Source: a virus (taxonomy: Duplodnaviria; Caudoviricetes). From it: a DNA stretch of 51,206 bases. Within the stretch, counting starts at the first letter, position 1. Every line of letters starts with the position of its first letter. Both the position numbers and the translations under genes were made by a program. The stretch lies in the IMG/VR virus record IMGVR_UViG_3300008222_000010, positions 1 through 51,206 of that record. One strand, 5' to 3'. The notes below the pieces were generated by a model. The model worked only from the letters and a program-made list of their open reading frames with translations. It did not search any database and was not told the DNA's origin. Below, piece by piece: positions 1,522-49,271 of this stretch.

Positions 1522-1574
1522 CCCCTATTGTGTTTAGCCCTCTCCGACTGAGTAAGATTATAGCACAATAGGGG
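1522..1574 (-). promoter_or_regulatory. late-type extended -10 promoter (TGCTATAAT, 1565-1557) overlapping an 11-bp inverted repeat that pairs with the RBS
   Basis: CCCCTATTGTG (1522-1532) / CACAATAGGGG (1564-1574) perfect inverted repeat. Confidence 0.75.
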
Positions 1575-1582
1575 GTTGACGA

Positions 1583-1945
1583 TTACCGCAATATGCGACC
1601 GAACCCGCAGTAATCAACAGTTACGCCGCCCGTAACACCCGTAGCAACAACTCGATAAGCTGCTATATCGCCGTATCCGTTTGGCTGCGGTCTGTCTGGA
1701 TCGTATGCGTCTACAGCGTTAAATAATCCGCTATCCATAGTTTGCCACACCTCGTCAGGCGGTAGCGTTGCGCTACCTTGGACGAGGAACGTACCACCTG
1801 TTGGTGTTACCTTGTTGCCTCCTGCGTCGCGAAGGATTGGTGGGTTAAATGTGAATACCGCGTACTCCATTGGAATTAACCGCGTATCAGACGCACCGCT
1901 TACGGTTTGGTCTAAAAGTTTAAATCTCTGTGTTTGTGCTGACAT
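1583..1945 (-). CDS. hypothetical virion-associated protein
   Basis: 120 aa, GGAGA RBS, downstream of the capsid gene. Confidence 0.6.
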   Translation of the reverse strand: MSAQTQRFKLLDQTVSGASDTRLIPMEYAVFTFNPPILRDAGGNKVTPTGGTFLVQGSATLPPDEVWQTMDSGLFNAVDAYDPDRPQPNGYGDIAAYRVVATGVTGGVTVDYCGFGRILR

Positions 1946-1959
1946 ATTTTTATCTCCAT

Positions 1960-1986
1960 AAAAAAAGGGAGCCTAAATTGGCTCCC
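1960..1986 (-). terminator. intrinsic terminator
   Basis: GGGAGCC-aattta-GGCTCCC followed by a T run on the minus strand. Confidence 0.8.
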
Positions 1987-1995
1987 TGTATTTTA

Positions 1996-2265
1996 TCACG
2001 ATTCTTTACTTGCCTTTGGCTTAGGCTTTGGCTTAGGCTTTGGTTTTGGCTTCTCTTCTATCTCGCCAACCTTTGTAACCTTTGGGGTGCCAGTTGCGAT
2101 TAAGTCTTTCTCAAATGAGTCCTTAAACCTGACATCAATAATTTTCAACCCTGCATCACGCGCAAGTTTCTTGACGTCTTCGTTGTAAATTAGGTTGGCG
2201 GGCATTTCTAGTAACCAAACTTTACTTTGCTTGCTTTTGAATTTTCCAATCAATGAGTTATTCAT
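1996..2265 (-). CDS. small head-region protein with (KP)n tail
   Basis: 89 aa, directly after the capsid gene; C-terminal KPKPKPKPKPKPK. Confidence 0.65.
   Translation of the reverse strand: MNNSLIGKFKSKQSKVWLLEMPANLIYNEDVKKLARDAGLKIIDVRFKDSFEKDLIATGTPKVTKVGEIEEKPKPKPKPKPKPKASKES
2014..2052 (-). repeat. 6-bp-period coding repeat (Lys-Pro)x6
   Basis: ctttggcttaggctttggcttaggctttggttttggctt on the + strand. Confidence 0.8.
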
Positions 2266-2279
2266 TTATATTCACCTAT

Positions 2280-2303
2280 AAAAAAGGGGCTGCAATAGCC
2301 CCT
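2280..2303 (-). terminator. intrinsic terminator after the capsid gene
   Basis: AGGGGCT-attgc-AGCCCCT plus a T run. Confidence 0.8.
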
Positions 2304-2323
2304 ATGTAAATTTATTGTTACTA

Positions 2324-3292
2324 CTAAAGAGTGGTAACTAGCACACCAGCGGTATCTTTTACGTCAGTAGCAACGCGATCCCAGTTTGTGGCTGTAGCTA
2401 GAGCTGCATCATTAGGTGAGCGACCACCATTGGCAACGTCCCACGTGTAACCTTTCATGCCTAGATTGAAGTCAAACTCGGCCTTCATGGTGCGCTCAAC
2501 GTTAACTTTGTCGATAGCTTGGTCATGATAAACTTCGTAGTTACCATTATCTTCTAGTAATATAGCGCCGCGAACAAGGCCTAATTGATGGTAGTGATGA
2601 ACGCCAGCCGAAACAGCATCAACAACAACCAAGCTAGGACTATCAGTAACGATAAGTGGGCGACCCGCAGAATCAGCAACAATTGATACCGAACCGAACT
2701 CAAATAGGCGCTCTGCATTCTGTAGATTGGCATCGATAATGTCAGTCTTAGACGTAGAGTGCATAACCCACGCAGCGATTGCAGAAGAGCGATCTCCAAA
2801 CTTACCAGCGCCAGCGTTTAAAGCTCGTAACGAAGCCTTACCGCTTGTGGCTACGTGTACCAAATCAGTTACAGCGCTAGTAGCAGCAACGTAAGACGCG
2901 ATAGCAGAGTTCAGCATATATTGCATAATACCGACTGCAACTTGCTCACCGAAAGCCATACCAGCTTGCTCAGGATCCTCTTGAATCCACTTGAATTGCG
3001 TAGGAGTAACGCGCATCAACGCAGTACCACCGCCAACTTTTACGCTAGCTTCTTGTAATTGCTCTAAATCAACAGCAGTTAAATCACCAGTTGCGCCAGA
3101 GTCGCGGTTGATAACGATATTAGCGATAGAGCCGAATAACGTATCGTAATCATAATCACCGATATTGCTACCAGCGCTTAGTGTGATAGTGCCGTTTGAC
3201 GCACCGTTAAAAAGGTCGACTTGCTGACCGATTACTTCTGTAGCAGCGCTGTAAGCGAAGCTATTGAAGATTTGCATGTTTGCTGTGCCCAT
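2324..3292 (-). CDS. major capsid protein
   Basis: 322 aa after the scaffold; MQIFN...QQVDLFNGASNG and KGYTWD...SPNDAALATATNW...KDTAGV motifs typical of a gammaproteobacterial siphovirus capsid family; followed by a terminator. Confidence 0.85.
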   Translation of the reverse strand: MGTANMQIFNSFAYSAATEVIGQQVDLFNGASNGTITLSAGSNIGDYDYDTLFGSIANIVINRDSGATGDLTAVDLEQLQEASVKVGGGTALMRVTPTQFKWIQEDPEQAGMAFGEQVAVGIMQYMLNSAIASYVAATSAVTDLVHVATSGKASLRALNAGAGKFGDRSSAIAAWVMHSTSKTDIIDANLQNAERLFEFGSVSIVADSAGRPLIVTDSPSLVVVDAVSAGVHHYHQLGLVRGAILLEDNGNYEVYHDQAIDKVNVERTMKAEFDFNLGMKGYTWDVANGGRSPNDAALATATNWDRVATDVKDTAGVLVTTL

Positions 3293-3323
3293 TAGTTTAA
3301 TTCCTGTATTTTATAATTAAGTA

Positions 3324-4067
3324 TTAAGATGCGTGGCTTTTCTTGATTTTAGCTGTCTTTTCAGCCCTGCTCATTTCATTCCACGGCTTGTTCAGGTCTA
3401 ACGCAGCACCGCCTTGTTGTCCCCCTTGTGCGCCAATGCCCGCTTTGGATTGTGGCTTTTTGGCTAGCGCTGCAAATAGGGACTCCCCTTTCAGCATTTC
3501 TGTGTTTGCTTCTAGATTAAATGCAACTGCTGCGCCACTGGCGTCAGTCATTGCAAATTGTCCATCTGCCTCTACAATACGTTGTCGTAACAAGATTTCT
3601 GCCGCTGCTCGTGCTTCATCACTAGCGAATGCACCTGCTAGTTGTGACGCCATTTCACCGATTTTTGCATCAGTGATTGACTTGCGTAAGCCGCTTAGCT
3701 CATCGTCTTTAGCTGCTAATGAATCTAAAACTTTTTGATGCTCAGCTTCTTTGATTTCTTGCTCAAGTTTGTTTAATGCGCTTGTGTTGTTCGATGCTTT
3801 CAATCGTTCGCGTTCAGCTTCCAAGTCGTCTGCCGCTTTTGCTTCTGCTAGCGCTTGTGCTTGCGATGCTTTTTCATTGGCGTCAGCTTGAAAACTATCA
3901 AACTTTTTACTTAATTCAGTGAGTTGACCTTGATTGCGATAAGTCGCTTTTGTCTGCTCTGCTAAATCTTTGTGCATAAAAACGGTTGCGCCGCCTTGCT
4001 CGAATGGTACGAATGAATCTTTAGCTTCTTGCGGAACGTCCGCTTCGTTGCTGTATTGTAGTTGCAT
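3324..4067 (-). CDS. head scaffolding protein
   Basis: 247 aa coiled-coil with Gly-rich C-terminus, between portal and capsid. Confidence 0.8.
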   Translation of the reverse strand: MQLQYSNEADVPQEAKDSFVPFEQGGATVFMHKDLAEQTKATYRNQGQLTELSKKFDSFQADANEKASQAQALAEAKAADDLEAERERLKASNNTSALNKLEQEIKEAEHQKVLDSLAAKDDELSGLRKSITDAKIGEMASQLAGAFASDEARAAAEILLRQRIVEADGQFAMTDASGAAVAFNLEANTEMLKGESLFAALAKKPQSKAGIGAQGGQQGGAALDLNKPWNEMSRAEKTAKIKKSHAS

Positions 4068-4072
4068 GTGTT

Positions 4073-4130
4073 AGACCCTAACTAGTTGCATGTATGTTGT
4101 AAGTGTCTATTATAGCATACAACTAATTAG
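4073..4130 (-). promoter_or_regulatory. late-type extended -10 promoter (TGCTATAAT, 4117-4109) with RBS-sequestering inverted repeat
   Basis: minus-strand CTAATTAGTTGTATG pairs with CATGCAACTAGTTAG(GG): 15 bp including 2 G-U pairs. Confidence 0.75.
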
Positions 4131-4146
4131 TGGTTATTTTGACCAA

Positions 4147-5544
4147 TTACATTTCGAGCTCAGCCAGTATTACATCAACCTCTTCTTTTAGTATTCCTCC
4201 GTCACGCATCTGTCTCAAGCCCTCTTGCTTTGATATTAACGTTGTGGTGACGTCATTGGCGATAGCCTTACGCTCCTCAGGGTCTAACTTACTTTGGTTG
4301 AATTCTTTATTGATTACTAGCTCATATTCAGGTTCTTTATTTGATGTGGACATAAACCCAAAGCAGATATCGATTAGCATTTTATAGCCCTCTTCGATAG
4401 AGTTGGCGATATTGACCAATGCGCGTAACTGCTCTGCTGATTTAATTTTAGTTGTACCTACTGCCTCCTCCGTTGCCTCACTGGTATCAAACGAGCCGCC
4501 GAAAGCTTTAATCTCTTTCTGGTTAGCTTCTAGGTATTTGAAATAATACGAGTTGTCAGCTTTGTTTTCTAGGTAGCTAGCCGTAACGCCAGCGGGTAGA
4601 TTAATACCACCACTTGAGCCAAGCTTGATAGCCATGGTGCCGCCATTCATCTTCTTGTACGCGTCTATCATGTCGTCACTATCCCAACCCGTAGTTACAG
4701 GAGTTGGTTGTGCATCACGATGTAGCACTTCCTTTAAGTCAGCGTTAACTTGGTAGCGTGAGATTGTTTTTAGTACGATAGGGTGAATAACACCATAGTT
4801 AAGTGGCATTTCACTAGAACAATATGGACGGTCTGTAACGATGTAGTGCGGGATATGCATCATCGGCGCGCCTTTGTATTCAGGGTAAACCATTTCGCTC
4901 CTCTGCTCGATGCCGTCGCTATCAATAGTAATTTGCTGTTGATAGTAGTGGCCGTTTTCGTCAAGACCAAGAATTAGCGCAGTTGAGCGTGACTCACGTG
5001 CTAGCGTTTGCTTATTTACGTGCGACGTATGCTCGATTAGTTTTGCGTATGATAGCTGCTTGATGCCGTTAATCATCTCGTAATCCCAATCGAATACAGA
5101 CTCACGCGGGTAGTGCCTAATATAAGCCTGTGCGCCATCGTAGTCAGCTAAAAGGAAGTGGCTACCCATTTGCATAACCTGATAGGCTGTAGCTCTCATG
5201 GACTCTGACAGTGTTGTGTTGGCACCATCGGAATTGTACATTAGATATTCAATTTCGCTCGGTAGGTCATCAGTAATAGCGGGCGTTTGCCACATTGCAC
5301 CACCTAAGCTAATTAGTGTTGCGCCTGCTACCTCGTCAAATTCAGCACGCGCCTTGAATCGATTATACCTAGTAATTGCGCCTTCGCTTGTGGTATCGGT
5401 ATCACTAGGGTGCGGTAGGTAAATTAATGAATTAACACTATTCTTTACTTTGTGCTCACCACCTACAGCGTCACGTATTTTTAATAATTCGTCTTCGTTT
5501 TCTGTGTACTGCACGTGTTTTACGTGCATAACTGCGTGTGTCAT
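4147..5544 (-). CDS. portal protein (DUF4055-like)
   Basis: 465 aa; YLPHPS...RY..FK.RA.F N-terminus and RYQVNADLKEVLH..QPT motif; position before the scaffold. Confidence 0.85.
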   Translation of the reverse strand: MTHAVMHVKHVQYTENEDELLKIRDAVGGEHKVKNSVNSLIYLPHPSDTDTTSEGAITRYNRFKARAEFDEVAGATLISLGGAMWQTPAITDDLPSEIEYLMYNSDGANTTLSESMRATAYQVMQMGSHFLLADYDGAQAYIRHYPRESVFDWDYEMINGIKQLSYAKLIEHTSHVNKQTLARESRSTALILGLDENGHYYQQQITIDSDGIEQRSEMVYPEYKGAPMMHIPHYIVTDRPYCSSEMPLNYGVIHPIVLKTISRYQVNADLKEVLHRDAQPTPVTTGWDSDDMIDAYKKMNGGTMAIKLGSSGGINLPAGVTASYLENKADNSYYFKYLEANQKEIKAFGGSFDTSEATEEAVGTTKIKSAEQLRALVNIANSIEEGYKMLIDICFGFMSTSNKEPEYELVINKEFNQSKLDPEERKAIANDVTTTLISKQEGLRQMRDGGILKEEVDVILAELEM

Positions 5545-5571
5545 GTGATAAGCCCTGATTAAGTTTAGGTA

Positions 5572-5580
5572 ATTATATCA
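5572..5580 (-). promoter_or_regulatory. late-type extended -10 promoter of the portal gene (TGATATAAT)
   Basis: same motif as upstream of other virion genes; back-to-back with the + strand TTGACA promoter; only a weak hairpin here. Confidence 0.65.
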
Positions 5581-5590
5581 TTATTAAGTG

Positions 5591-5618
5591 TTGACATAAT
5601 ATTGTGAGCTGTTAATAT
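5591..5618 (+). promoter_or_regulatory. sigma70-type early promoter
   Basis: TTGACA-16-TAATAT with AT-rich upstream, then AAGGAG RBS. Confidence 0.7.
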
Positions 5619-5647
5619 GGTTACATCTAAAACGAAGGAGAATAAAA

Positions 5648-6244
5648 ATGAAACATACAGGAACATTGGTGTCACATAAAAAAGAAGTAATCATGGCTGC
5701 GGTGGCCGATATGCGAAAGACGATGAGCTTAGCCGAGATAGAGGCCTTGGTTGGCCTCAGCGCGCCAACGATATGTAATATAGCTAACGGCTCAGTGTCG
5801 GAAAGAACCGCGCTAAAAATCATTGCGGCAGCTAAACCGAAACAGGAAAAGAAGGTGGTAGCGCTAAAAATGCCAGAGCTAAACAATGACCTGTCGGATA
5901 TCGCTATCGCGCACAAATACTGCCAAAAGGCCGATAACGCATCAGCGGCTGGTCACTCCTTTAAGTTGAGTTTTGACGAGTATAAAAACTTGATATTGCA
6001 AAAGTTTTGTGCGTATACCGACATTAAAATGACGAGAAGCGGTAAGGGGGCACAAGCACAGACCGACATCACTATCGACCGAGTGGACAACAGTAAGGGT
6101 TATGTCGATGGTAATGTCGTTGCATGCTGCTTCGCTGCTAACCAATTAAAAGGTCACACCGAGAGCCCTGCAAACGCACTAAACATTAACGGCGCGCTTA
6201 TGGTTCTTAATCGAGCTAAGGCACTACTGGAGAAACAAAAATGA
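5648..6244 (+). CDS. HTH + Srd-like/HNH-fold protein
   Basis: N-terminal HTH (SLAEIEALVGLSAPTICNIANG); C-terminal CAYT...TIDRVDNSKGYVDGNVVACCFAANQLK as recalled for phage Srd-family/HNH-like proteins. Confidence 0.65.
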   Translation: MKHTGTLVSHKKEVIMAAVADMRKTMSLAEIEALVGLSAPTICNIANGSVSERTALKIIAAAKPKQEKKVVALKMPELNNDLSDIAIAHKYCQKADNASAAGHSFKLSFDEYKNLILQKFCAYTDIKMTRSGKGAQAQTDITIDRVDNSKGYVDGNVVACCFAANQLKGHTESPANALNINGALMVLNRAKALLEKQK

Positions 6245-6405
6245 TTTACACAAACAATCTAAGCCGCACCCAATACCGCAAATCAGCTAATCACAATTAC
6301 GCTGAATACCGTAGCGATAACGGTGCATGGAAATTGAGCGCATCGGTCAGTAATGATGAACTAGATGACATTAAACGATTTAAACAGGATTTTAATAATG
6401 GGTAA
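6241..6405 (+). CDS. small hypothetical protein (54 aa, not in the ORF track)
   Basis: ATGA overlap with the upstream stop, GGAGA RBS; MIYTNNLSRTQYRK...FNNG. Confidence 0.55.
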   Translation: MIYTNNLSRTQYRKSANHNYAEYRSDNGAWKLSASVSNDELDDIKRFKQDFNNG

Positions 6406-6835
6406 CGAAACGGTAACACTGAACAAGGCAACGTATGACTCAATGAATAGAGAGATTGAGGAATTAAAAGAACTGGTTATTGCAGGCGCGTACAACCTTA
6501 CTTTTGAGTACGTGTACATTAAGGATATAACCGATGTATTCCTAATGCCGCCACGCGGTGATAATGGCCTTTCAGAGCGCGAAGCGAGTCAAAGACTGAG
6601 AGACTGCACCTTTAATCATAATGTATCTATAGCTAGCTTAGGTGATAGTCTGGATGAAATTCAAAAGCGTCAATCTGAACTAAAGTGGGCGTCAGAAAAA
6701 CGCGAGCAAGACGCTAAAAGTGCCGCAGATAAAGGAATAGAAGAAATGATGGAGCTTTGCGACAAGGAGCGAGAGCTAGCAGCGAAGGCGTCAAAAAAAT
6801 TAAAATCAAAACTACCGGGGTGGTTACAATGGTAA
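6398..6835 (+). CDS. hypothetical coiled-coil protein
   Basis: track ORF 6365..6835; likely start MGNETV at 6398 after AGGA. Confidence 0.6.
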   Translation: MGNETVTLNKATYDSMNREIEELKELVIAGAYNLTFEYVYIKDITDVFLMPPRGDNGLSEREASQRLRDCTFNHNVSIASLGDSLDEIQKRQSELKWASEKREQDAKSAADKGIEEMMELCDKERELAAKASKKLKSKLPGWLQW

Positions 6836-7077
6836 ATAAACAACAAACAATCAAAGAATACGCAGACGAACTGGTCGGTACAAGTTACGGCAGTAAAGCA
6901 GCATTAGCTCGAATGATTAATAAGGCTCGGCAGCAGGTTGACCGCTGGGTAAAAGTTAACGGATTGGTAATCGACCACAAGATATATACGCCATCACAAG
7001 GTCACTTTAACGAGGTTACCACAATAAACGGTAAGCCTTACAAAATGGTATTTGATGTCGCGGGTTACTTACCATGA
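6829..7077 (+). CDS. Cro-like HTH DNA-binding protein
   Basis: MVNKQQTIKEY...YGSKAALARMINKARQQVDRWV HTH pattern; start moved to the ATG at 6829. Confidence 0.6.
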   Translation: MVNKQQTIKEYADELVGTSYGSKAALARMINKARQQVDRWVKVNGLVIDHKIYTPSQGHFNEVTTINGKPYKMVFDVAGYLP

Positions 7078-7250
7078 GTCGCAACTCAAAGCAATGGGTG
7101 CAAACGTTCGCATTGGCGCTAGTATTTAGCGTTACTATGCTGGCGTTACTTTATTAACACATACAGAGGTGGCAGGATGAAAATTAACAAGGATTACGTC
7201 GGTGATTTTATTATGTTTATTCTAGCCATCACGTTTCTATGGATGGTATT

Positions 7251-7487
7251 ATGAAAACATTTAAAGGATGTAAATATGTAATCACCGCGACTGGTGAGGT
7301 TGTTGAAGCTGAACTTAATTCGCTGTCAATACTATTCGCGGTTGGCATCGATGGCGCGTACTACAGAAGCGAATTCACAAAGCTCATCATGGACGATAAG
7401 CCTTGGAATGGTGGGAATGATGAGCATGTCGGCATGTCAATGCAGATAGCTAACGACGCAATACGTAAAATGATTAGCCATCAATAA
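7251..7487 (+). CDS. hypothetical protein
   Basis: MKTFKGCK..., last gene of the + strand cassette, converges on the MuF-like gene. Confidence 0.5.
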   Translation: MKTFKGCKYVITATGEVVEAELNSLSILFAVGIDGAYYRSEFTKLIMDDKPWNGGNDEHVGMSMQIANDAIRKMISHQ

Positions 7488-8625
7488 CCCTAAACGCCTT
7501 ATCGGCAATACCACTTTCGCGCAACTCATCGAGCGTCAGTGGTCGGCCTGTTATGTCAGTAAACTTACTGATATGCAGCTTCCCGTCTAGAAACAATCTA
7601 GCGCCAGTAACACCCAAGCTCGACTCCACAAACGCCCTAGGCTGCATACGTAAAAATTCATCACTAGCCATATCTGAACGCACCTTTTGCACACCGTAAC
7701 GCTCGTCTTTATTGCCTTTACGCTTAGTCGAGTAATCGTATTTGTCAGACGTGCCTTGTGTGGCTGGTTTTGTTCCATGTAGCGGGTCGATGCCTTTTAG
7801 TCTAATCAAATAAACGCTACGGCAGTTCATGTGCAACGGTATGCGCGGGTAATTCTTTTCGTCTAAATCCCACTCTTGCAGGTTAAATCTCATGCACGTT
7901 TTAGTTGTACGGTTATCCATCACTGCATAAAAAATACGCGTTTCTGCAATGTCTTTATTAGCTTGATACATTCTATCGCGAGCTGAGTTTGAATAATGAC
8001 TAACGCCAGTGCGTACTAGTGTAGACGCCTGATTCTTTGTTACGCCGTCAAGTATGCCGCCGCTGTATGTTTTTGTGCTGCGATTGTACGTGCCGCGAAT
8101 GTTGCGCGTAATCTCTTGGTTTGTTAGTCCTGCGCCGTAACCAGCGTCAATCTGGCCTATTATCGCGCGACTAGTTGAATCGATATTGTTGCGCACGAAA
8201 TCAGCCCACACGCCCGACCTAGAGCTAGCACCACTTGATAGTACCATTGTCGCGGCGTTAGCATAACCTATCAGCGTCTTGTCTTCTGGAATAGCAAATG
8301 ATGCGCCTAGGAAATCATCGTAAATGTCGTTAACGTGGGCAACGTCTAGCGCGGTCATGTGTTGCATTTGCTGTGTAATCAACTCAAATTCTGGCTGCAT
8401 TAGCGCTTTGATTGACTCACGGATACGCGCACGAATAGCGTTGCGTTCGGATTGATTTAGTTGCTGTAGGTTGCCAAACTCTTCGATAATTGCAGGTAGG
8501 GATTTTGCGAACTCATTGTATGGTACGCCAATGTGTTGATTGATAAGCTGTGACGCGAATCGTGACAAATACACCTCGCGGCGTACAAGTGATTCAATGA
8601 TGGTATCTTCGTTTGGAGTAGCCAT
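7474..8625 (-). CDS. head morphogenesis / minor head protein (SPP1 gp7 / Mu F family)
   Basis: LVRT...AVMDNRTTKTC...PLHMNCRS motif. Confidence 0.85.
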   Translation of the reverse strand: MATPNEDTIIESLVRREVYLSRFASQLINQHIGVPYNEFAKSLPAIIEEFGNLQQLNQSERNAIRARIRESIKALMQPEFELITQQMQHMTALDVAHVNDIYDDFLGASFAIPEDKTLIGYANAATMVLSSGASSRSGVWADFVRNNIDSTSRAIIGQIDAGYGAGLTNQEITRNIRGTYNRSTKTYSGGILDGVTKNQASTLVRTGVSHYSNSARDRMYQANKDIAETRIFYAVMDNRTTKTCMRFNLQEWDLDEKNYPRIPLHMNCRSVYLIRLKGIDPLHGTKPATQGTSDKYDYSTKRKGNKDERYGVQKVRSDMASDEFLRMQPRAFVESSLGVTGARLFLDGKLHISKFTDITGRPLTLDELRESGIADKAFRVIDG

Positions 8626-8662
8626 AAAAAAGCCCTATTGTTTATATAGGGCTATTATAGCA
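8626..8662 (-). promoter_or_regulatory. late extended -10 promoter fused to a terminator-like, RBS-sequestering hairpin
   Basis: minus strand TGCTATAAT-AGCCCTAT-ataaaca-ATAGGGCT-TTTTT-ATG. Confidence 0.8.
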
Positions 8663-8728
8663 TTATGTTTGTTTAGGACATCAAGCCCCAGTCTTCTTCG
8701 CTTAACTCTTTCGTTGTTAAGTTCAATC

Positions 8729-8950
8729 TCATAGCTCCCCCTTGATTACATCTGGATCGAATATGAGCAGCCACATTAAACAGAACTCATTCATGCTGTC
8801 TGCGCTAATCTTTACGGCGTTTCTTATTTCGTTGTCGGATTCCTTTCTTCCGATATACACGCCGCCGTCACCCACCACTGCGGCTAATTCATGAGAGTAA
8901 ACACCTTGAACTTCTCTGTCATTCATTACGTACCCTATCTCGTCACTCAT
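8729..8950 (-). CDS. hypothetical protein
   Basis: 73 aa, ATGA-coupled, AGGAG RBS. Confidence 0.55.
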   Translation of the reverse strand: MSDEIGYVMNDREVQGVYSHELAAVVGDGGVYIGRKESDNEIRNAVKISADSMNEFCLMWLLIFDPDVIKGEL

Positions 8951-9144
8951 TGACTTTTCTCCTTAATCATTCTGACAATATCATCAAGCTCTTCTCTTTC
9001 CGAAACATGCTCAAGGATGAAGTTGGCTTTAGCTGTGATTATACTCCTTTCCAGCCAAGCGACCACTTCGCTACCACCCTCTGAGATATCGATTAATTGT
9101 TGTAGAGTGTCTACTTGTACGTCTAATGCTTCTAGCTTATTCAT
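8947..9144 (-). CDS. hypothetical protein
   Basis: 65 aa, ATGA-coupled, GAGGA RBS. Confidence 0.55.
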   Translation of the reverse strand: MNKLEALDVQVDTLQQLIDISEGGSEVVAWLERSIITAKANFILEHVSEREELDDIVRMIKEKSQ

Positions 9145-9284
9145 TTCTTGTCCTCTATTGATTTACAGATAAATGACACGGCGACAAACATATTGCTAAT
9201 CAAACCGAAATAGTCATCCACTGTGAGCGCGTACGGGACAAGCAACCCGGCAGCTATCAATAATGATGCCGCTGAACACTTCAT
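9141..9284 (-). CDS. small membrane protein (47 aa, not in the ORF track)
   Basis: MKCSAASLLIAAGLLVPYALTVDDYFGLISNMFVAVSFICKSIEDKK; ATGA overlaps at both ends. Confidence 0.6.
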   Translation of the reverse strand: MKCSAASLLIAAGLLVPYALTVDDYFGLISNMFVAVSFICKSIEDKK

Positions 9285-9481: not shown

Positions 9482-9503
9482 ATTAATCTCCAATTAAAAA
9501 ACC

Positions 9504-9531
9504 AGCTTATCACGTCCGTGTGATATGTCAA
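9504..9531 (-). promoter_or_regulatory. sigma70-type early promoter
   Basis: TTGACA-16-TAAGCT with TG extension. Confidence 0.6.
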
Positions 9532-9981: not shown

Positions 9982-9985
9982 ATTA

Positions 9986-11759: not shown

Positions 11760-11765
11760 TAATAG

Positions 11766-11814
11766 ACCCTATTATTTGACTGTGCCGGACTCCGGCTAAT
11801 AGGGCATTATATCA
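11766..11814 (-). promoter_or_regulatory. late extended -10 promoter with RBS-sequestering hairpin
   Basis: minus strand TGATATAAT-GCCCTATTA-[gccggagtccggc inner hairpin]-acagtcaaa-TAATAGGGT-ctatta-ATG. Confidence 0.8.
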
Positions 11815-11821
11815 TGACAAT

Positions 11822-11843
11822 AAAAAGCCCCGATTAAGGGGCT
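11822..11843 (-). terminator. intrinsic terminator
   Basis: AGCCCC-ttaatc-GGGGCT-TTTT. Confidence 0.8.
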
Positions 11844-11849
11844 TGTGAA

Positions 11850-12307: not shown

Positions 12308-12335
12308 ACAATATCACACGCACACCACTTGTCAA
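12308..12335 (-). promoter_or_regulatory. sigma70-type early promoter
   Basis: TTGACA-16-TATTGT with TG extension and an UP-like A/T tract. Confidence 0.7.
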
Positions 12336-12794: not shown

Positions 12795-13240
12795 ATTTTA
12801 CCGTCTGGATTATCAAAAGTACTATCACGTATGATACCACAACACCAATAAACGCAAACGCAAACGCTAGAAACGAGATAAAAAAGTCCATTTGTTATCA
12901 CCACCATTGCTGACGCTATCTCGATTGAGAAGTATATGTTTTTCCAGCTCAACATATTGTTTTGTTTTATGTCCACTAATAAGTAATACATATCAGGATG
13001 AATCATTATAGCATTGAATATGCCTGATACTGACATTGATAGGCATAGTAGCAATGCGAAAACTCGTTGTAACCCTCTTCTCGGAATGATTAGCAAACAG
13101 GCTATCGAGGTGGCAATGTATGTGAATGCTGCGACCGTATTGGCTAATCCGTACAGGTACTCATGTACGTAATCCATTGCGGGTGAGGACACAAAAAAGC
13201 CAGCGGTTAAACTGGCAATTAAAATTAAAAGCAACCGCAT
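12791..13240 (-). CDS. multi-pass membrane protein
   Basis: 149 aa with ~4 hydrophobic segments. Confidence 0.6.
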   Translation of the reverse strand: MRLLLILIASLTAGFFVSSPAMDYVHEYLYGLANTVAAFTYIATSIACLLIIPRRGLQRVFALLLCLSMSVSGIFNAIMIHPDMYYLLVDIKQNNMLSWKNIYFSIEIASAMVVITNGLFYLVSSVCVCVYWCCGIIRDSTFDNPDGKI

Positions 13241-39727: not shown

Positions 39728-42282
39728 TATGATTGACGTCCTTTTATATTTAAACTGTTATTGCCGGACGTTATTGTCACGGCGTTACCGTTGCTTATTA
39801 TAGCAAACCCAGCGAGACCAGCATTTGAGCTAATCGAGCTGCTATTTGTGTCTCGCTGCGAGTCCTCACCGAATAGGCCGCCAGATACGCCTGCCAGTGT
39901 TCCGGGTGCTGTTTGAGTGCCCGTAACACCATCTAGTGCTGTTCGTGTGTAAAACCCAGTTACGTTACCCGTAAGTGCTCCGTTGCCACCTATGAAGCCT
40001 TGACCGCCACTGCCACCGTTACCAGCGACAGGAGAAAACACGCCAGCCTTTATTTCTATTACGTAAGATGTGCCGCCATTAACGCCACCACCACCAGCCC
40101 AAACTTCACCACCACCAGCGTTTATCGTGGTCGGTACTGTTATGTTGATTGCGGTGCCGCCAGTGCCGCCATTCTGTCCTATCGATTCCTCTACGAAGCC
40201 CTCGGTCGTTGGTAAGTTGCCACCGTTGCCACCATGACCGCCAGCGCCTAGGATTGAACCACGGACGATTATTTCAAATGACACGCCCGCCGCCTGTGCG
40301 CCCTCGTCAAACGCTGGGATAGATACGTCAGTTGGCCCAATGACCACGCCAGCTTCGATTAGTATTACGTAGTGACCAGCCACTGGCGCGAACTCAGTTG
40401 ACAGGTCATAATTAATCTTGTTTTCGCTAATGGTAAAATCTACGGCGCTAGCCGTTTCAGGGTCTTGAAATAACCGCGTATTAACCCTGTAGTGAGGCGT
40501 GCCTTTTAACTGCTGGATACTCAACACTTGATGTAGCTTCGATTTAAACGAGCCGTCAGCATGCTGTGATTGCGATGTAGCCAAGCTGACTAGCGAGCCT
40601 AGTTCCATCGTGCCATTTGGCGTATTACCTACATCTTCGGCGTCAATGACAAACTCACCCAGCTCTGGCACGTCTTGGTTTCGGTCAATTAGTCGCTGAC
40701 CTATCGACGTGCCTTTTGCCGTATCCCCAACCGCATTAGTTAGCCATGAGCACGGAAACAAATCTTTCTCGTTGACTTCGCCCAAGTTTCGCGGTATTTC
40801 ATTCCCAATGTTAATAGGCAAGTAACGAATGGAAAAATCTTCCTCGTCAGTCGCTTTTGTTGCGTCATATGGTGCCCACGCAATCGGATATCGGGTATAT
40901 TGATTCTTGGTGTCGCGAGTAATTTTAGCCGTGTTACTCATGATGTTAACGCCCTCTTCGAACGTTAGTGGCTGCAAATCTTGGTCTGTAACTGGCTTTA
41001 TTTTAATTAGCTTTTCTGTGTCACTAAAAAACAACGTCAAATCAGCCACTACAATCAACTCGTTAACCAGCTTGCTAATGGCTGTTGGTTTACTTAGCAT
41101 TCTCGTAACTGTCTTTGATGATGTTGCCGATATAACTGCCGTGTAATCATCTAAAAACCTAGACTCGATTGATGTGCCATCCGTGAATAGCTCATTAATG
41201 ACAGTGACGGGATTTTCATCGACCCACCAGCGACACTCTTGTACCGTCGAGTTGACGCTATGATTCTGTTGCTCCGAGCCGTGCGACGCCCTGTTGATAA
41301 TGGTTAGCTCAAAATCGGACGCGTGCGTACACTCTATAATCTCGCTATCGATTCTGACATACGTTGTAACACCCACAGCGCCATATTTGAGCGCTATATC
41401 GTTAGCATATGTAATCGCAAGGGATACATCATCAATAGCTGCCACAAGCGTTGCGTCGGACGCTAACGGCAGCTTAGACTTTGATTCCTCTGCTAACATC
41501 AGCGGGTCAACACCGAATAGTGTTACATTGCCATTTTGACGCTGGACATCATCAATAACATACTCAGTTGATATAAAGTTGTCGATGTCAAAATTAAGTG
41601 GATCGAATCCCTTGTAATGCTCGATTTTTCGCCCCGTCATATTTGGGTGGCGAGCCAGAATCTTACCCCACAGCGTGCCATTGCTAGACCTGCGCTCGGG
41701 ATAAGGCAGGTAGTTATCGTTATCGATACCATCAGCTAGCGTTACTGACAATGTGGCACGACTGCCCATTGATACCGCTGGCGCAACTCTGCCCGATGTG
41801 GCGCTGGCACTGCGGAATCCGCTGTACGTTATTTGACCATGTGACAATCTAGAGCTGGGAAATCTAAATACTTTTGTTGATGCTGCGAGGTACGCATCAC
41901 TTGATGAGCAATTGTGAGGGAATCCATAGCATGACGAGTCAGCTTCACCTTTATGTGCTAAGCGCATAGCCGTTGCTGCGTGCGCCACTGCAACCGTACC
42001 AAGCTCGCCCCGTGAGGTAATATTAACGGTGGTATCGTTAACAATGGTAACTTTCATTAGCTCACTATCAATCTTTGCGTACCCGTCCGTGAGGCTCCAT
42101 AGCGTAGCGTTGCCACCTGACACGGTTACGTTGCCCGTGTAAGTATCATTGATTGCGGATGCAAGCGTTAAAGATCCGGCAGCTATGTATTCGTCGCTAA
42201 CGTATTTGCACCAGTCAAATGTAATATCAACGAATTCGCATAGCGTTTGCTCGGCTTGAGCCTTTTTAATGTCATATGTCAT
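39727..42282 (-). CDS. tail tip / central tail protein
   Basis: 851 aa; two IDSE(L/I)...RG..G...H repeats; Gly-rich C-terminus. Confidence 0.8.
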   Translation of the reverse strand: MTYDIKKAQAEQTLCEFVDITFDWCKYVSDEYIAAGSLTLASAINDTYTGNVTVSGGNATLWSLTDGYAKIDSELMKVTIVNDTTVNITSRGELGTVAVAHAATAMRLAHKGEADSSCYGFPHNCSSSDAYLAASTKVFRFPSSRLSHGQITYSGFRSASATSGRVAPAVSMGSRATLSVTLADGIDNDNYLPYPERRSSNGTLWGKILARHPNMTGRKIEHYKGFDPLNFDIDNFISTEYVIDDVQRQNGNVTLFGVDPLMLAEESKSKLPLASDATLVAAIDDVSLAITYANDIALKYGAVGVTTYVRIDSEIIECTHASDFELTIINRASHGSEQQNHSVNSTVQECRWWVDENPVTVINELFTDGTSIESRFLDDYTAVISATSSKTVTRMLSKPTAISKLVNELIVVADLTLFFSDTEKLIKIKPVTDQDLQPLTFEEGVNIMSNTAKITRDTKNQYTRYPIAWAPYDATKATDEEDFSIRYLPINIGNEIPRNLGEVNEKDLFPCSWLTNAVGDTAKGTSIGQRLIDRNQDVPELGEFVIDAEDVGNTPNGTMELGSLVSLATSQSQHADGSFKSKLHQVLSIQQLKGTPHYRVNTRLFQDPETASAVDFTISENKINYDLSTEFAPVAGHYVILIEAGVVIGPTDVSIPAFDEGAQAAGVSFEIIVRGSILGAGGHGGNGGNLPTTEGFVEESIGQNGGTGGTAINITVPTTINAGGGEVWAGGGGVNGGTSYVIEIKAGVFSPVAGNGGSGGQGFIGGNGALTGNVTGFYTRTALDGVTGTQTAPGTLAGVSGGLFGEDSQRDTNSSSISSNAGLAGFAIISNGNAVTITSGNNSLNIKGRQS

Positions 42283-43090: not shown

Positions 43091-43127
43091 TATAACACCC
43101 TATGATAATCTATAGGGTATTATATCA
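43091..43127 (-). promoter_or_regulatory. late extended -10 promoter inside an RBS-sequestering hairpin
   Basis: minus strand TGA-TATAATACCCTAT-agattatc-ATAGGGTGTTATA-a-ATG; 13-bp stem with one U-G pair. Confidence 0.8.
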
Positions 43128-46341: not shown

Positions 46342-46346
46342 AAACT

Positions 46347-46368
46347 AAAACGGCGCAATTAAGCGCCG
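46347..46368 (-). terminator. intrinsic terminator after the tail tube gene (probably leaky)
   Basis: CGGCGC-ttaatt-GCGCCG-TTTT. Confidence 0.65.
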
Positions 46369-46387
46369 CCCTTACATCAAATTGTTG

Positions 46388-47551
46388 TTAAACCCAGTTA
46401 CGGAAAATCTGGATAGTTGCGCCAGTTGTTGCGTCACCTTCTGCCGTGTAGCTCATTTCATTTTCGACAATCTCGCCATCGGTGAATGAGTGCTCAGTAA
46501 CGACAGCGCGTGTAATCTCGATAACCATCCAGCGGTCATCAGGCCAAGTCATATGCGCCGCTAATGCAACGCGCGTGCCATTGTCTCGACGGTCAGCCCA
46601 TTGGGTAGATGAATCAGCGAATGTCTTAGCGATTAACGAACCGGACAGGCTAATTACGCCGCGTCCGAATTCCTCGGTACAACCACCCGCGCCACCTTCA
46701 TCACCAACGAAGTTATTGGCAAACTCGATACCCATTGTTGATAGGACGCAACCTATATTTTGGCCGTCCACATACAGCATCTTAGTGTTGTTGATTGCGC
46801 TAACAGAATCACTAGTATCGACTGTTGCATCAGTTTGGCCTGCTATAGCTGCCGTGCCCGCTTCTGGATTACCCATCTTAGCGCCGAATGAACCTGTTAC
46901 GATTCCCGACTTTTCAATCGAGATTGAACCAGTATCCATCAATGTATCTTTGACGGTTTTGTATGCAATGTTACCAACTTTAGAGTTATCAAGTACGCGT
47001 TGCTGGGTGGTTAACACTGTGCGCTGAGTGCCGTTAGAGCATTTTAAGCTAGACATTACGATACTTGCGCCTGCCGCTTCTGTGGCTGCCGGAGCTTGCG
47101 ATGTGGTAATCTCGGTCGCGCTATCGATAGATGCAACTTTATACGCGGTATCCAAATCAGCGTTAGTAGAACCTAAAATCCCAAACCAATCGCCAACACT
47201 TAAACCAGATACGTGACCCGCTGGCATAACATAGCCTGTTGCGGTCGCCTCAATGCCAGTTGATGCGGCTTGACCGTTATCAGTTTGAGCACCGTGAATT
47301 AGCGCCTCGAAATACTTAGCGGTTTCTTGTGACATATCGAAATCAACAGACATTGACGTTTCGCGTCTATCCTGAACCTGCTGCGGCGCATTGCCATCGG
47401 TCGGAATCTCGTTACCTGTAACATATGTTGGGGCGCTAACTAATGAGCCGCCCGTTTTGCGTATCTCAGTGAAAACAGGATTGGTATCAATCGTGCCCTC
47501 GACAGCCTGAGCTGAAATTAATAATTTTATGTCGCTGCGCTGCAAGCCCAT
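46388..47551 (-). CDS. major tail (tube) protein
   Basis: 387 aa between the tail terminator and the chaperones. Confidence 0.8.
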   Translation of the reverse strand: MGLQRSDIKLLISAQAVEGTIDTNPVFTEIRKTGGSLVSAPTYVTGNEIPTDGNAPQQVQDRRETSMSVDFDMSQETAKYFEALIHGAQTDNGQAASTGIEATATGYVMPAGHVSGLSVGDWFGILGSTNADLDTAYKVASIDSATEITTSQAPAATEAAGASIVMSSLKCSNGTQRTVLTTQQRVLDNSKVGNIAYKTVKDTLMDTGSISIEKSGIVTGSFGAKMGNPEAGTAAIAGQTDATVDTSDSVSAINNTKMLYVDGQNIGCVLSTMGIEFANNFVGDEGGAGGCTEEFGRGVISLSGSLIAKTFADSSTQWADRRDNGTRVALAAHMTWPDDRWMVIEITRAVVTEHSFTDGEIVENEMSYTAEGDATTGATIQIFRNWV

Positions 47552-47554
47552 CGT

Positions 47555-47962
47555 TTAACCCTCAAAGTAGTATTCTGTTTGTATCTGTATAGTATACCAC
47601 GCATCGTTATTGCCAGTGAAAATGACGCTCGATTCCGTGGTTCGTGTGTTGCTCATTTGCTGTTTTCGCCATGCTCGCTGTAGAAGCTCTGCATGGTCGA
47701 TTGCTGTTTTAACGCCGAAAGTGCTACCCTTAGGCGTGTTAATTTCTAGCGTTATGATGCCGAACGTTCTACGCCATCCCGCACCTGCTGCTGCATCGAT
47801 AGTGTTGTTATTGGTGATATCAACCCTAATCCAGTTGGCGTCTTTTGGTGCCTCGCGGTCATCATTTGGCAGGTATACGTCATTATCAGTATATCCCGCT
47901 GGTAAATTTGCGCTAATGTGTGCTATTAAGTCGCTGTATGTTGATACTAATGAATCAGCCAA
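47555..47962 (-). CDS. tail terminator protein
   Basis: PND...P..NWIRV...G.I.LEI.TPKG..G pattern; synteny. Confidence 0.75.
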   Translation of the reverse strand: MADSLVSTYSDLIAHISANLPAGYTDNDVYLPNDDREAPKDANWIRVDITNNNTIDAAAGAGWRRTFGIITLEINTPKGSTFGVKTAIDHAELLQRAWRKQQMSNTRTTESSVIFTGNNDAWYTIQIQTEYYFEG

Positions 47963-48344
47963 ATCTTACGTCCTCGAATTCCAATCCCGCTTTTTGTACT
48001 GCCGCTGCGATGAAGTGGCTATTCTGGTCAGACCAACCATTTTCTAATCGCTCCATGTACGGTTTTAGCGATGTAACGTACAAATCACTAAGCTCGACCG
48101 TAGCCGTACCCTTTCGGATTCGTGCGTTGTTTTCAGTTTGTGCGCCACCAGCTCTACGTGATTTTGAGCGCTCTTTACGCGGAGGTTCGTCAATGCCGAT
48201 TTGCCATGAACCGCGAGCCTCGCCCGTATCTGCTGGCGTATCTTTCAGTAAGTCGTTTGACACGCTAAACGCCATAATTCGTTGCGCTTTCTGTACGTCA
48301 TCAGTCAATTCGTCGGTAATATCAAAATCAGTTTCGTGACTCAT
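47955..48344 (-). CDS. tail completion / neck protein (HK97 gp10-like)
   Basis: TPADTGEARGSW and PYMERLENGWSDQ. Confidence 0.8.
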   Translation of the reverse strand: MSHETDFDITDELTDDVQKAQRIMAFSVSNDLLKDTPADTGEARGSWQIGIDEPPRKERSKSRRAGGAQTENNARIRKGTATVELSDLYVTSLKPYMERLENGWSDQNSHFIAAAVQKAGLEFEDVRFG

Positions 48345-48703
48345 TTATCATGCACCTGTAATGTCCATTCTGATTTCGTCTCACTTATTGCCACAGCCAC
48401 GATATTAACCTCTGTACCATTCACTGTACATGATAGAGATTTATTAATTGTGCAATTGAGAGGGTTCGCTGGAAAGCCAACGTTGTAATCAGTCAGCCCG
48501 ATACTGTCACTGGCACGCTCGTAGTTTTTAAAGTCGTACACACGAGCAACTGTAATCGTATCAGTTGCGGTAACTGCCTTAACACCAGTCATAGGATCTT
48601 CTCTGCCGTATTCAGTTAACACGATGGTGTTGATTGTTTGTCCTGAGAACACCTGAGAGTACAGCTCATTAGCTATAGACAAACACTGAGGATTAGTTAG
48701 CAT
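48341..48703 (-). CDS. head closure protein
   Basis: 120 aa; synteny between adaptor and neck. Confidence 0.65.
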   Translation of the reverse strand: MLTNPQCLSIANELYSQVFSGQTINTIVLTEYGREDPMTGVKAVTATDTITVARVYDFKNYERASDSIGLTDYNVGFPANPLNCTINKSLSCTVNGTEVNIVAVAISETKSEWTLQVHDK

Positions 48704-48705
48704 GA

Positions 48706-49233
48706 TTAACCCCTACTGAATGAGAATGCGCTATCTGAACCGCTAGCTGTAACTGATAACATATCAAGATAAATTTCAGATGTCGGAGAGCCTGCTGCTT
48801 CAGTTGCGATACCTGCCGCGCTAGATGCACTTTGGTAGTACTCAACCTTCAACGTGTCCAACTGCTGAGACTTAACGTCTCCAGTGGTTGACGCAGAAGA
48901 CGCAGCGTCAAGGTCGCCTTTGAATTTAGATACAGCCGCTTCGAGTTGGGCGCGTTTTAGTTCTTTTGGAATTTCTGTGGATGCAACAAGTACGCCACTG
49001 GCGTAGCTAGATGATTGCGGATAACGCAAGGCTTGACTGGTAGTTGTTTTTAGAATGAATGCGGTTAAAAATTGCTCAGTGTAATCGCCACCGCTGATTA
49101 ACTCAATCTCGCGAGCTGTTGCGGTTGCGCCAATTGATATTCCACGCGCCGCTGCGTATGCAACATATTCCGCATCAGTATTGTAACTGTTTGCTGTAGC
49201 GACTCCGCTACCGTCTTCGATTATAATTGCCAC
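48706..49233 (-). CDS. head-tail adaptor (DnaT-like family)
   Basis: GTG start giving MAIIIEDGSGVATANSY; QALRYP, IPKELKRAQ.E.A, LKVEY motifs. Confidence 0.8.
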   Translation of the reverse strand: MAIIIEDGSGVATANSYNTDAEYVAYAAARGISIGATATAREIELISGGDYTEQFLTAFILKTTTSQALRYPQSSSYASGVLVASTEIPKELKRAQLEAAVSKFKGDLDAASSASTTGDVKSQQLDTLKVEYYQSASSAAGIATEAAGSPTSEIYLDMLSVTASGSDSAFSFSRG

Positions 49234-49271
49234 AAAAAAGCCCAATAAAAATGTATTGGGCTATTATAGCA
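49234..49271 (-). promoter_or_regulatory. late extended -10 promoter fused to a terminator-like, RBS-sequestering hairpin
   Basis: minus strand TGCTATAAT-AGCCCAATA-catttt-TATTGGGCT-TTTTT-GTG. Confidence 0.8.

Follow-up and report, generated by a model that had tools for sequence, protein, structure and literature searches.

Extended -10 promoter motifs overlapping hairpins ahead of virion genes in an uncultured siphovirus-like genome

How might a phage with no recognisable RNA polymerase or sigma factor of its own set the output of its virion genes apart from that of its replication genes? The question is raised by IMG/VR virus record IMGVR_UViG_3300008222_000010 (Duplodnaviria; Caudoviricetes), which was analysed whole as one linear stretch of 51,206 bases (the window; CheckV completeness 100%) and is a complete uncultured siphovirus-like genome. 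A sequence-only reading had pointed to seven TGnTATAAT motifs ahead of virion transcription units, six of them at an inverted repeat with a ribosome-binding site (RBS) in its 3' arm, and had proposed that RNA arriving from upstream is translationally locked there and that RNA started at the internal promoter is translated. PHROG scans of 70 open reading frames (ORFs) found no RNA polymerase and no sigma factor, and the phage must therefore use the host enzyme. In our judgement there is about an even chance that promoters of this genome are nested in hairpins which would terminate or silence read-through RNA and so insulate each unit, a T4-like RBS lock being one facet of the design.

The comparison drew on the two nearest relatives, G001 (46.8 kb) and G002 (48.6 kb), which were fetched as whole genomes and whose proteins are 35-73% identical to those of the window, and on further loci (L-numbered below); a portal-protein alignment search of viral contigs supplied 32. 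TGnTATAAT has nine matches in the window, all on the minus strand; 3.31 (standard deviation 1.67) are expected on both strands together, and a count of nine was reached in 1 of 100 shuffles. Seven matches are intergenic in a genome of which 9.3% is intergenic (binomial 1.8e-6). These seven lie where the sequence-only reading had placed them, and all directly precede virion genes (TerS/TerL, a gp7-like gene, portal, scaffold/major head protein, the adaptor Ad1, the fibre block and a 504-aa unit). Two more matches, at 13005 and 39797, are intragenic, and the variant reported near 13324 was also recovered.

11806..11814, minus strand: extended -10 of the TerS/TerL unit (TGATATAAT), at the same position in G002, L136, L119, L129 and L121
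8654..8662, minus strand: extended -10 of the gp7-like gene (TGCTATAAT), kept in G001, G002, L136, L194, L196, L197 and L119
5572..5580, minus strand: extended -10 of the portal gene
4109..4117, minus strand: extended -10 of the scaffold/major head unit, kept in G001, G002, L123, L124, L127 and L129, with the variants TGATACAAT and TGTTACAAT in L119, L120 and L121
1557..1565, minus strand: extended -10 of a gene of 504 or more codons (p504; unknown family, 1512..1); gene and site are absent from G001 and G002
49263..49271, minus strand: extended -10 of the Ad1/tail unit, kept in G001, G002 and L189
43119..43127, minus strand: extended -10 of the 268-aa gene (p268), which follows an 824-aa ORF, and of the tail-fibre genes; the site is in G001, G002 and L189
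13324..13332, minus strand: variant TGATACAAT, upstream of a 149-aa and a 129-aa gene of unknown function; the matching place in G001, G002 and L136 holds a perfect TGCTATAAT
13005..13013, minus strand: TGCTATAAT inside the 149-aa ORF, without support as a promoter; no counterpart was found in the relatives
39797..39805, minus strand: TGCTATAAT within the final part of the 851-aa fibre gene, 70 nt ahead of a 536-aa gene, with no hairpin (z -0.5); a possible internal promoter, with TGTTATAAT at the matching place in G002

The sites have the form of the extended -10 class, with TG one base upstream of a near-consensus hexamer and -35 scores like those of random sequence. The best TTGACA match at a spacing of 16-18 nt was 2-3 of 6 bases at six sites and 4 of 6 (GTAACA) at 43119, the only late site picked up by a two-hexamer consensus scan. 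Over three genomes a 4-of-6 match occurred at 2 of 23 extended -10 sites, against about 3 expected at random, which agrees with the earlier statement that no -35 box can be recognised. Counted by strand, the motif occurs 6/1 times in G001, 1/8 in G002 and 1/4 in G003, and reversed-pattern controls gave 0-1. In G001/G002 it is kept before TerS, the gp7-like gene, portal, scaffold, Ad1, the 268-aa gene, the gene after the fibre and the unit at 13324, and in more distant relatives it stands at TerS, gp7 and scaffold, at times as TGnTACAAT, the form used at scaffold in L119-L121. There is thus good evidence that TGnTATAAT marks a real promoter class, because it stands before the same genes, strand-specifically, in relatives whose proteins share 40-70% identity with those of the window.

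To describe the hairpins, a long form, reaching from the start codon back to 22 nt before the TG, was folded, together with a short form running from a start site assumed 7 nt after the hexamer, and fold energies were compared with 300 dinucleotide shuffles. The long form beat at least 95% of its shuffles at six of the seven sites. The z score and the fraction of shuffles that were as stable are given for each hairpin below.

11766..11805, minus strand: long-range TerS stem GCCCTATT/AATAGGGT, 8 bp (11798-11805 with 11766-11773) with one G.U pair (11805/11766); z -2.5, fraction 0.017
8626..8653, minus strand: gp7-like hairpin AGCCCTAT/ATAGGGCT, an 8-bp stem (8631-8653) that begins at -6 and is followed by T5 and ATG (8625); z -1.9, fraction 0.043
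4078..4130, minus strand: scaffold stem of 15 bp, arms 4116-4130/4078-4092, with two U.G pairs (4126/4082 and 4119/4089); z -5.3, fraction 0
1522..1574, minus strand: p504 stem CCCCTATTGTG/CACAATAGGGG, a perfect 11 bp (1564-1574 with 1522-1532); z -3.4, fraction 0
49234..49262, minus strand: Ad1 hairpin AGCCCAATA/TATTGGGCT, a 9-bp stem (49239-49262) that begins at -6 and is followed by T5 and GTG (49233); z -2.6, fraction 0.017
43092..43123, minus strand: p268 hairpin with core ACCCTAT/ATAGGGT, 7 bp (43097-43118) extendable to 12-13 bp, with one U.G pair (43119/43096); z -3.0, fraction 0.01

Inverted repeats whose 3' arm includes the GGG of the ribosome site were thus seen, as had been claimed, at every promoter except that of portal. 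The 5' arms occupy promoter positions -6 to about +1/+2 (-6 to +2 at TerS) or lie upstream of the -10, ending in the promoter TG at scaffold and p504; the 3' arm reaches or contains the Shine-Dalgarno (SD) sequence, AGGGG at p504. CCCTAT/ATAGGG recurs at four sites and takes two different places with respect to the -10. The 5' arm precedes every possible start site, so RNA begun at the promoter itself is unable to form the hairpin. With the start site assumed as above, this part of the earlier claim stood: the short form had 0 kcal/mol at gp7, portal, Ad1 and p268, and short forms ranged overall from 0 to -3.4 kcal/mol, the exception being TerS (-10.1), from its inner hairpins. Portal, the sole hairpin-free late promoter of the seven (z -0.8; none in G001/G002 either), serves as a consistency check: its upstream neighbour is divergent in the window, G001 and G002, and in the window its promoter stands back to back with an early-type promoter (5591-5618, plus strand) of that divergent gene.

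The hairpins fall into two kinds. A G+C stem-loop followed by a U-run was found at 8631-8653 and 49239-49262 and in their orthologues, with a stem of 8-9 bp, 4 G-C pairs, a loop of 6-7 nt and T5, and a consensus scan agreed. The other four (1522-1574, 4078-4130, 11766-11805 and 43092-43123) have no U-run, and their tails before the start codon are AAAACAATC, GGTCTAAC, CTATTA and AA. The two best-conserved hairpins, gp7-like and Ad1, with T5-6 before the start codon, would on these features be ordinary intrinsic terminators. Unlike canonical ones, however, they end 0 nt before the start codon and contain the SD sequence.

Conservation in the relatives is strongest at the same two sites. The gp7-like hairpin is present in all eight aligned sequences with 98% of cells paired; its arms are nearly unchanged, its loops vary in length and sequence, and one compensatory change (C-G to U-A) occurs in G001. 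The T-run follows in 8 of 8 and ATG directly after it in 7 of 8, L119 having the tract TTTATTTT and an uncertain start codon. The Ad1 stem is identical in the window, G001, G002 and L189, with a different loop in L189, and T-run and GTG are kept. The p268 hairpin is kept in the window, G001 and L189 and is weaker in G002; in G001 (AACTCAAT/ATTGGGTT) it carries a compensatory change and a U.G pair. L190, L191 and L192 lack the p268 cassette, and there the counterparts of the 824-aa and 268-aa ORFs overlap (TTAATG). The SD-in-helix arrangement is therefore kept at gp7, Ad1 and p268 but not at TerS, where the stem is found in the window only (G002 z -0.4), or at scaffold, where it is again specific to the window and G001/G002 have another hairpin lying wholly upstream. 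The expected signature of motif and covarying arms in relatives thus appeared at the gp7-like and 268-aa sites, with the motif kept more widely, and failed for the TerS and scaffold stems. The conserved part is chiefly a terminator-type hairpin starting at promoter -6.

The sequence-only reading had treated G-U mismatches in the stems as a sign of a role at the RNA level. All four non-Watson-Crick pairs are indeed G.U on the coding strand, but the positions it had given are stem ends and not wobbles. The argument is thin and does not hold generally, because in whole-region folds the sense minimum free energy lay below the antisense one in only 4 of 12 cases.

A second class of promoters is highly uniform, with an AT-rich tract (often AAATAA), (G)TTGACA, a spacer of 16-18 nt and a weak -10 (TAnnnT). 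It stands before the primase, helicase, Sak4, SSB and Gam genes and many small ORFs, and also, within the virion region, at three or four positions (12335, 9531 and 50452, minus strand; 5591, plus strand). The two promoter designs split cleanly between replication and virion genes in three genomes.

50452, 28212, 25049, 21292, 20967, 19315, 17942, 16698, 12335 and 9531, minus strand: -35 boxes of early-type promoters
5591, 28259, 34452 and 36941, plus strand: -35 boxes of early-type promoters
50424..50452, minus strand: early-type promoter TTGACA-17-TATTGT, with hairpin CCCACAATA/TATTGTGGG and a T-run over spacer and -10; z -5.8
12308..12335, minus strand: early-type promoter (AT tract, GTGTTGACA, TATTGT) of a 142-aa gene just upstream of the TerS unit

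Among 48 early-type candidates in the window, G001 and G002, 18 carry a hairpin with z < -2 that runs from just after the -35 box and spans spacer and -10; a run of T4 or more follows in 7 of these 18, and no ribosome site is involved. The orthologous triplet at 50452 in the window, 9805 in G001 and 10875 in G002 covaries, with arms CCCACAAT/ATTGTGGG, CCTACAAT/ATTGTAGG and CCCGCAAT/ATTGTGGG, respectively. Since 18 of 48 early-type candidates carry an embedded hairpin without an RBS, nesting is general, and the proposal that the design is a late-gene device did not survive. A promoter nested in a hairpin that forms only in read-through RNA would instead be a habit of the lineage, not peculiar to late genes.

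The reading that we favour, of promoters nested in hairpins that stop or silence read-through, would work as follows. Host RNA polymerase with the primary sigma factor would serve both classes, the early one (AT tract, TTGACA, weak -10) and the virion one (perfect extended -10). Each hairpin would be so placed that the promoter's start falls inside or after it, and would form solely in RNA arriving from upstream; in the late units it begins at -6 or ends in the TG, and the 3' arm would be the SD region because the leaders are only 20-45 nt. At the gp7-like gene and Ad1, hairpin and U-run would terminate read-through just ahead of the start codon. At the 268-aa unit, and in the window at TerS, scaffold and the 504-aa gene, there is no U-run and the SD would be masked instead. 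Each virion unit would thereby be insulated from upstream transcription, its output set by its own -35-independent promoter. By analogy, a temporal switch could consist in the loss of initiation that depends on the -35 box and the AT-rich upstream (UP) tract, for example through a protein that binds sigma region 4 or the beta-flap, with extended -10 promoters spared. AsiA leaves extended -10 promoters active.

Several results weigh against this reading. Start sites, timing and termination are all deduced from sequence. PHROG scans of 70 ORFs and Pfam scans of 20 found no factor directed at sigma region 4 or the beta-flap (gp39, gp76, AsiA or another anti-sigma factor), one secondary PHROG match described below apart, which is weak evidence because such proteins are small and fast-evolving. 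A perfect extended -10 should work with unmodified holoenzyme, so these promoters might fire early. In G001/G002 the unit matching 13324 has a co-directional upstream gene, yet no hairpin. Only 5 of 16 early-type candidates in the window have z <= -2.0, most lacking a hairpin. Conservation is incomplete, the hairpins being significant at 3 of 6 sites in G001 and 2 of 8 in G002, and the gp7 covariation count rests on a single change that 50 of 500 shuffles equal. When the longest contiguous stem (G.U allowed) was compared with mononucleotide shuffles, 3 of 7 sites were significant: the observed length was equalled in 11 of 2000 shuffles at scaffold, 3 of 2000 at p504 and 0 of 2000 at p268, and in 162, 163 and 666 of 2000 at TerS, gp7 and Ad1, where cutting the 5' segment at +2 shortens the Ad1 stem. 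RBS accessibility (-16 to +2), compared between long and short forms with the upstream part shuffled, was clear at one of eight sites, p268 (0 of 200); the value was 0.05 at TerS and 0.11-0.875 at the other six sites of the window. The low share of cases (4 of 12) in which the sense fold is the more stable belongs here as well.

One ORF touches the matter of a switch factor. A 198-aa protein (5648-6244, plus strand), divergent from the portal promoter, has an HNH endonuclease as its best PHROG match (2.8e-28) and no Pfam match; among its secondary PHROG matches are 'Srd anti-sigma factor' and 'decoy of host sigma70', and it has no orthologue in G001/G002. We take it for a probable mobile nuclease, not a switch factor.

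Other readings of the same features have to be set beside this one. If the main purpose of the design were translational locks on early read-through RNA, of the type known from T4 e, soc, 49 and I-TevI, the geometry would be explained, since it matches that of T4 gene e (PMC3014915, as far as the available part of that source describes it). The SD in the 3' arm at six sites of the window, which is a part of the earlier lock proposal that stood, and the four hairpins that without a U-run are not simple terminators also speak for it, as do early-type promoters upstream of the TerS, Ad1 and perhaps gp7-like units (12335, 50452 and 9531), although terminators intervene. However, we consider this strict form unlikely. 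The hairpins that all three genomes share are terminators and would let little read-through RNA pass into the gene; the TerS and scaffold stems, which have no U-run, are not kept in relatives, and the early-type promoters bear the same nested hairpin with no RBS in it. Moreover, scaffold, p268 and p504 have virion genes as their upstream neighbours, so any RNA locked there would itself be late. A second view makes the hairpins terminators or 3'-end stabilisers of the upstream units, which by chance overlap the next promoter and RBS in a compact genome and have no regulatory meaning. The intergenic spaces at these sites are only 32-103 nt, separate ordinary terminators exist as well (1966-1987, 2285-2303, 11825-11844 and 12363-12378), and overlap of terminators and promoters is widespread in bacteria (bioRxiv 10.64898/2026.08.19.745784, from the part of the source available). 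Against it, four of the six hairpins have no U-run, in the p504 and scaffold stems the entire promoter and leader lie between the arms (27- and 23-nt loops), unlike in a terminator, and the arms track the SD sequence, with CCCTAT/ATAGGG recurring at four sites in two placements with respect to the -10. We regard such an accident of packing as improbable, to much the same degree as the strict lock.

A third possibility is that there is no early/late switch at all, the virion promoters being strong and constitutive and timing coming from gene dosage or RNA stability. A consensus TGnTATAAT needs no activator (restated in PMC3950348), and no switch factor was found among the 70 ORFs scanned against PHROGs. 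That replication and virion genes in three genomes are cleanly divided between the two designs argues the other way, and the early class relies on a -35 box and AT tract, which are what known phage factors disable (PMC3950348); on balance we find the constitutive view rather doubtful. The repeats could also be DNA operators, at which a dimeric protein of phage or host would repress or activate the late promoters. The gp7, Ad1 and p504 arms are perfect palindromic half-sites overlapping a promoter, and terminator palindromes can double as transcription-factor sites (bioRxiv 10.64898/2026.08.19.745784, within the portion available). But the arm sequences differ between sites with no common half-site, loop length covers 4-10 nt in the gp7 orthologues and 5-27 nt across the sites, and arm changes are compensatory or G.U, and we hold operators to be very improbable. 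Three narrower explanations were rejected. Translational coupling, with upstream ribosomes melting the hairpin, is not general, as at most sites the 5' arm lies 12-76 nt past the stop codon. A GC-rich discriminator does not account for the CCC after the -10, for its offset varies (AGCCC, GCCC, ACCC, AACTC) and the p504 arm lies upstream of the TG. Stems of 7-15 bp make RNase III sites unlikely.

Two of the leaders hold a further element. The stretches at 4078 and 11766 that had been taken for 3' arms are halves of short hairpins with an RGU triloop, which compete with the long-range stems.

11784..11796, minus strand: TerS leader hairpin GCCGG-AGT-CCGGC, 5 bp with an AGU triloop
11761..11773, minus strand: TerS RBS hairpin AATAG-GGT-CTATT, 1 nt before the start codon (11759)
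4070..4082, minus strand: scaffold RBS hairpin GTTAG-GGT-CTAAC, 2 nt before the start codon (4067)

The RGU motif with a G-C closing pair occurs three times in the window, all at these places, and 0 times on the other strand; three on one strand were found in 0 of 30 shuffles. In the relatives such hairpins lie at the matching places of L117-L130 and L136. Ahead of the scaffold start, 14 of 14 genomes have an RGU hairpin, with a 5-bp stem in 12 and a 4-bp stem in 2; the stems vary there (GTTAG/CTAAC, GATAG/CTATC, ATCGG/CCGAT, TTCGG/CCGAA, ATTAA/TTAAT) and the loop G/A-G-U is kept. Ahead of the TerS start it is present in 8 genomes. The TerS leader hairpin appears in relatives as GCGCG-AGT-CGCGC, AGGCA-AGT-TGCCT, AGCCA-AGT-TGGCT, TGGCA-AGT-TGCCA and CCCC-AGT-GGGG. 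The resulting alignment is 100% paired, which is circular as evidence of covariation, its rows having been chosen by a scan that requires perfect stems; independent support comes from where the element lies (14 of 14 scaffold leaders) and from how rare it is (0 of 30 shuffles). The RGU hairpin may be a structured ribosome site or a protein operator. A precedent is reportedly the autoregulation of scaffold in phage P22, ascribed to Wyckoff and Casjens in 1985. If the element acts in this way, the hairpins at the TerS and scaffold starts would be a concrete candidate for a translational operator in head assembly.

These hairpins also enter a wider and more tentative version of the nested-promoter reading, which is possible and which we do not expect to hold in full: essentially every transcription unit of the lineage would start in a hairpin-nested promoter that decides the fate of RNA by where it starts, the RGU operator would present the TerS and scaffold SD to a regulator, and the late programme would be wired without a phage polymerase or sigma factor.

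How do these features compare with known systems? In T4 e, soc, 49 and I-TevI the SD or AUG is sequestered in a helix, and at e and I-TevI late promoters in the 5' strand of the helix yield translatable RNA (PMC3014915, in the part available). As there, the promoter here lies at or after the 5' strand, so that the long RNA has the inhibitory strand and the promoter's own RNA is without it. The T4 promoter, however, is TATAAATA, read by gp55 and used for a few genes in early regions, whereas here a host-type extended -10 precedes most virion units; also unlike T4, going by the same part of that source, two hairpins here have the form of full terminators, and nesting occurs at early-type promoters without an RBS. 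The geometry is the same as that of the T4 lock, and we claim no membership for a design known here from sequence alone. In Thermus phage P23-45, gp39 displaces sigma region 4 and spares the extended -10 middle and late promoters (PMC3950348, in the part available). Like P23-45, the phage described here depends on the host RNA polymerase, its presumed later genes stand behind extended -10 promoters without a -35, and promoters of its -10/-35 type would be the ones open to shut-off. Unlike P23-45, it has an early class with an AT-rich upstream tract and no homologue of gp39, gp76 or AsiA among the 70 ORFs searched against PHROGs; hairpin nesting is a feature found here and is not mentioned for P23-45 in the portion of PMC3950348 available.

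Terminators and promoters are often coupled in bacteria, and termination then typically falls some 10 bp ahead of the start site (Fletcher et al., bioRxiv 10.64898/2026.08.19.745784; this and the following comparisons refer to the part of that source available). As in that coupling, a terminator and the next promoter here share a few dozen bp, and the TerS site has the preferred order, with the hairpin at about -35 and the T-run before the -10.

11825..11844, minus strand: intrinsic terminator AAGCCCC..GGGGCTT with T-run, ending 10 nt before the TG of the TerS promoter

By sequence this layout (TG at 11814) agrees with the pattern of Fletcher et al., termination at most about 35 bp upstream of the start with the T-tract before the -10, and hairpin and T-run also precede the TerS promoter in G002, L136, L119 and L129; 11825-11844 would thus be a promoter-coupled terminator in the usual order. 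Unlike that coupling, the gp7-like and Ad1 sites are inverted, the -10 coming first, the hairpin reaching from -6 to about +17 and termination being predicted downstream of the start; and early-type hairpins here span spacer and -10, and late stems include the RBS. The main text of Fletcher et al. contains neither 'phage' nor 'ribosome', and the supplementary tables might include the inverted geometry.

The sequence-only reading had recognised no earlier description of systematic use of this design. A limited full-text literature search, which is no proof of absence, turned up no description of the combination in a siphovirus; every component has been described for other phages, and their systematic joining is a neat variation on known parts and no new principle. 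Should the favoured reading be right, a compact phage would obtain unit-by-unit control of virion output from the host polymerase alone, uniting three known tricks (a -35-independent promoter, a promoter-overlapping terminator and start-dependent SD masking) in one cassette of 40-60 nt. It would provide a readable sequence rule for annotating early and late genes in uncultured marine siphoviruses for which expression data are lacking, and small portable insulator-promoter parts for synthetic biology. The inverted geometry, a -10 followed by a terminator hairpin from -6, would extend bacterial promoter-terminator coupling to phages and add a new layout.

The genes to which these promoters belong follow the standard siphovirus layout on the minus strand, as assigned with PHROG.

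11274-11759, minus strand: TerS
9986-11287, minus strand: TerL
7474-8625, minus strand: SPP1 gp7-like head-morphogenesis protein
4147-5544, minus strand: portal
3324-4067, minus strand: scaffold
2324-3292, minus strand: major head protein
48706-49233, minus strand: head-tail adaptor Ad1
25530-33316, both strands: replication genes (primase, helicase, Sak4, SSB, Gam-like)

To these are added the 824-aa ORF in the tape-measure position (by place alone), the 268-aa protein of unknown function and the 851-aa fibre protein. Pfam gave no match for 20 ORFs, Rfam no family in the window and ARAGORN no tRNA. The window has no annotated close relative, because megablast of bases 1-20000 against cultured phages gave no match and by tblastn the identity of its portal to Pseudoalteromonas/Alteromonas siphophage portals does not exceed 32%. 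Viral contigs scanned with the single portal protein gave no relative, and a metagenome scan gained four short gp7 loci and nothing else. The exact pattern TGNTATAATRSCCCTAT was tried as a means of finding relatives; it matched 114 stretches, 82 of them listed, and these were treated as chance matches. In a tblastn check of 116 loci, L109 alone matched besides the window's own two loci, and distantly (22-30% identity).

Some further sites resemble the elements described above. TGATAAAAT at 1990-1998 (minus strand) is one mismatch from the motif, its TG lying inside the stop codon of the upstream gene; 2 nt after it comes a terminator, AGGGAGCC..GGCTCCCT with T7 (1966-1987), in the same -10-then-hairpin layout but with the RBS (GGAG) beyond the T-run. 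TGGTATACT at 47591-47599 (minus strand) stands about 40 nt before a 387-aa gene (46388-47551; major-tail position by place alone) and is a possible weaker member of the late class. Between that gene and the next ORF, at 46342-46387 (minus strand), lies a terminator-like hairpin GGCGC..GCGCC with the T-rich tail GTTTTAGTTT; the sole SD-like AAGGG is 5' of the hairpin, about 35 nt from the ATG, and the hairpin might bring it nearer to the start codon as a split ribosome site. In L120 (9201), L121 (5897) and L119 (13775), on the plus strand, the motif is followed by about 80 nt of GC-rich, structured, non-coding-looking sequence, and these stretches could be small RNAs.

The 504-aa ORF leaves the record at its start (1-1512, minus strand), and an open frame enters at 51002-51205 (minus strand), one base out of register. 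A circular permutation whose cut falls within the 504-aa gene, with a small assembly overlap or gap, is the probable form of the record. In the plus-strand block, 33317-33964 comprises 648 nt without an ORF, an Rfam family or a tRNA, and contains two alike GC-rich segments (..GCCGATTCGACC.. and ..GCCGATCCGACC..). Upstream of primase, 24980-25529 is 550 nt of non-coding sequence with repeated AAAGTCGATAGCAG / AAAGTCGGTAGC units, AACTATT repeats and a long AT-only tract, and looks like a replication origin.

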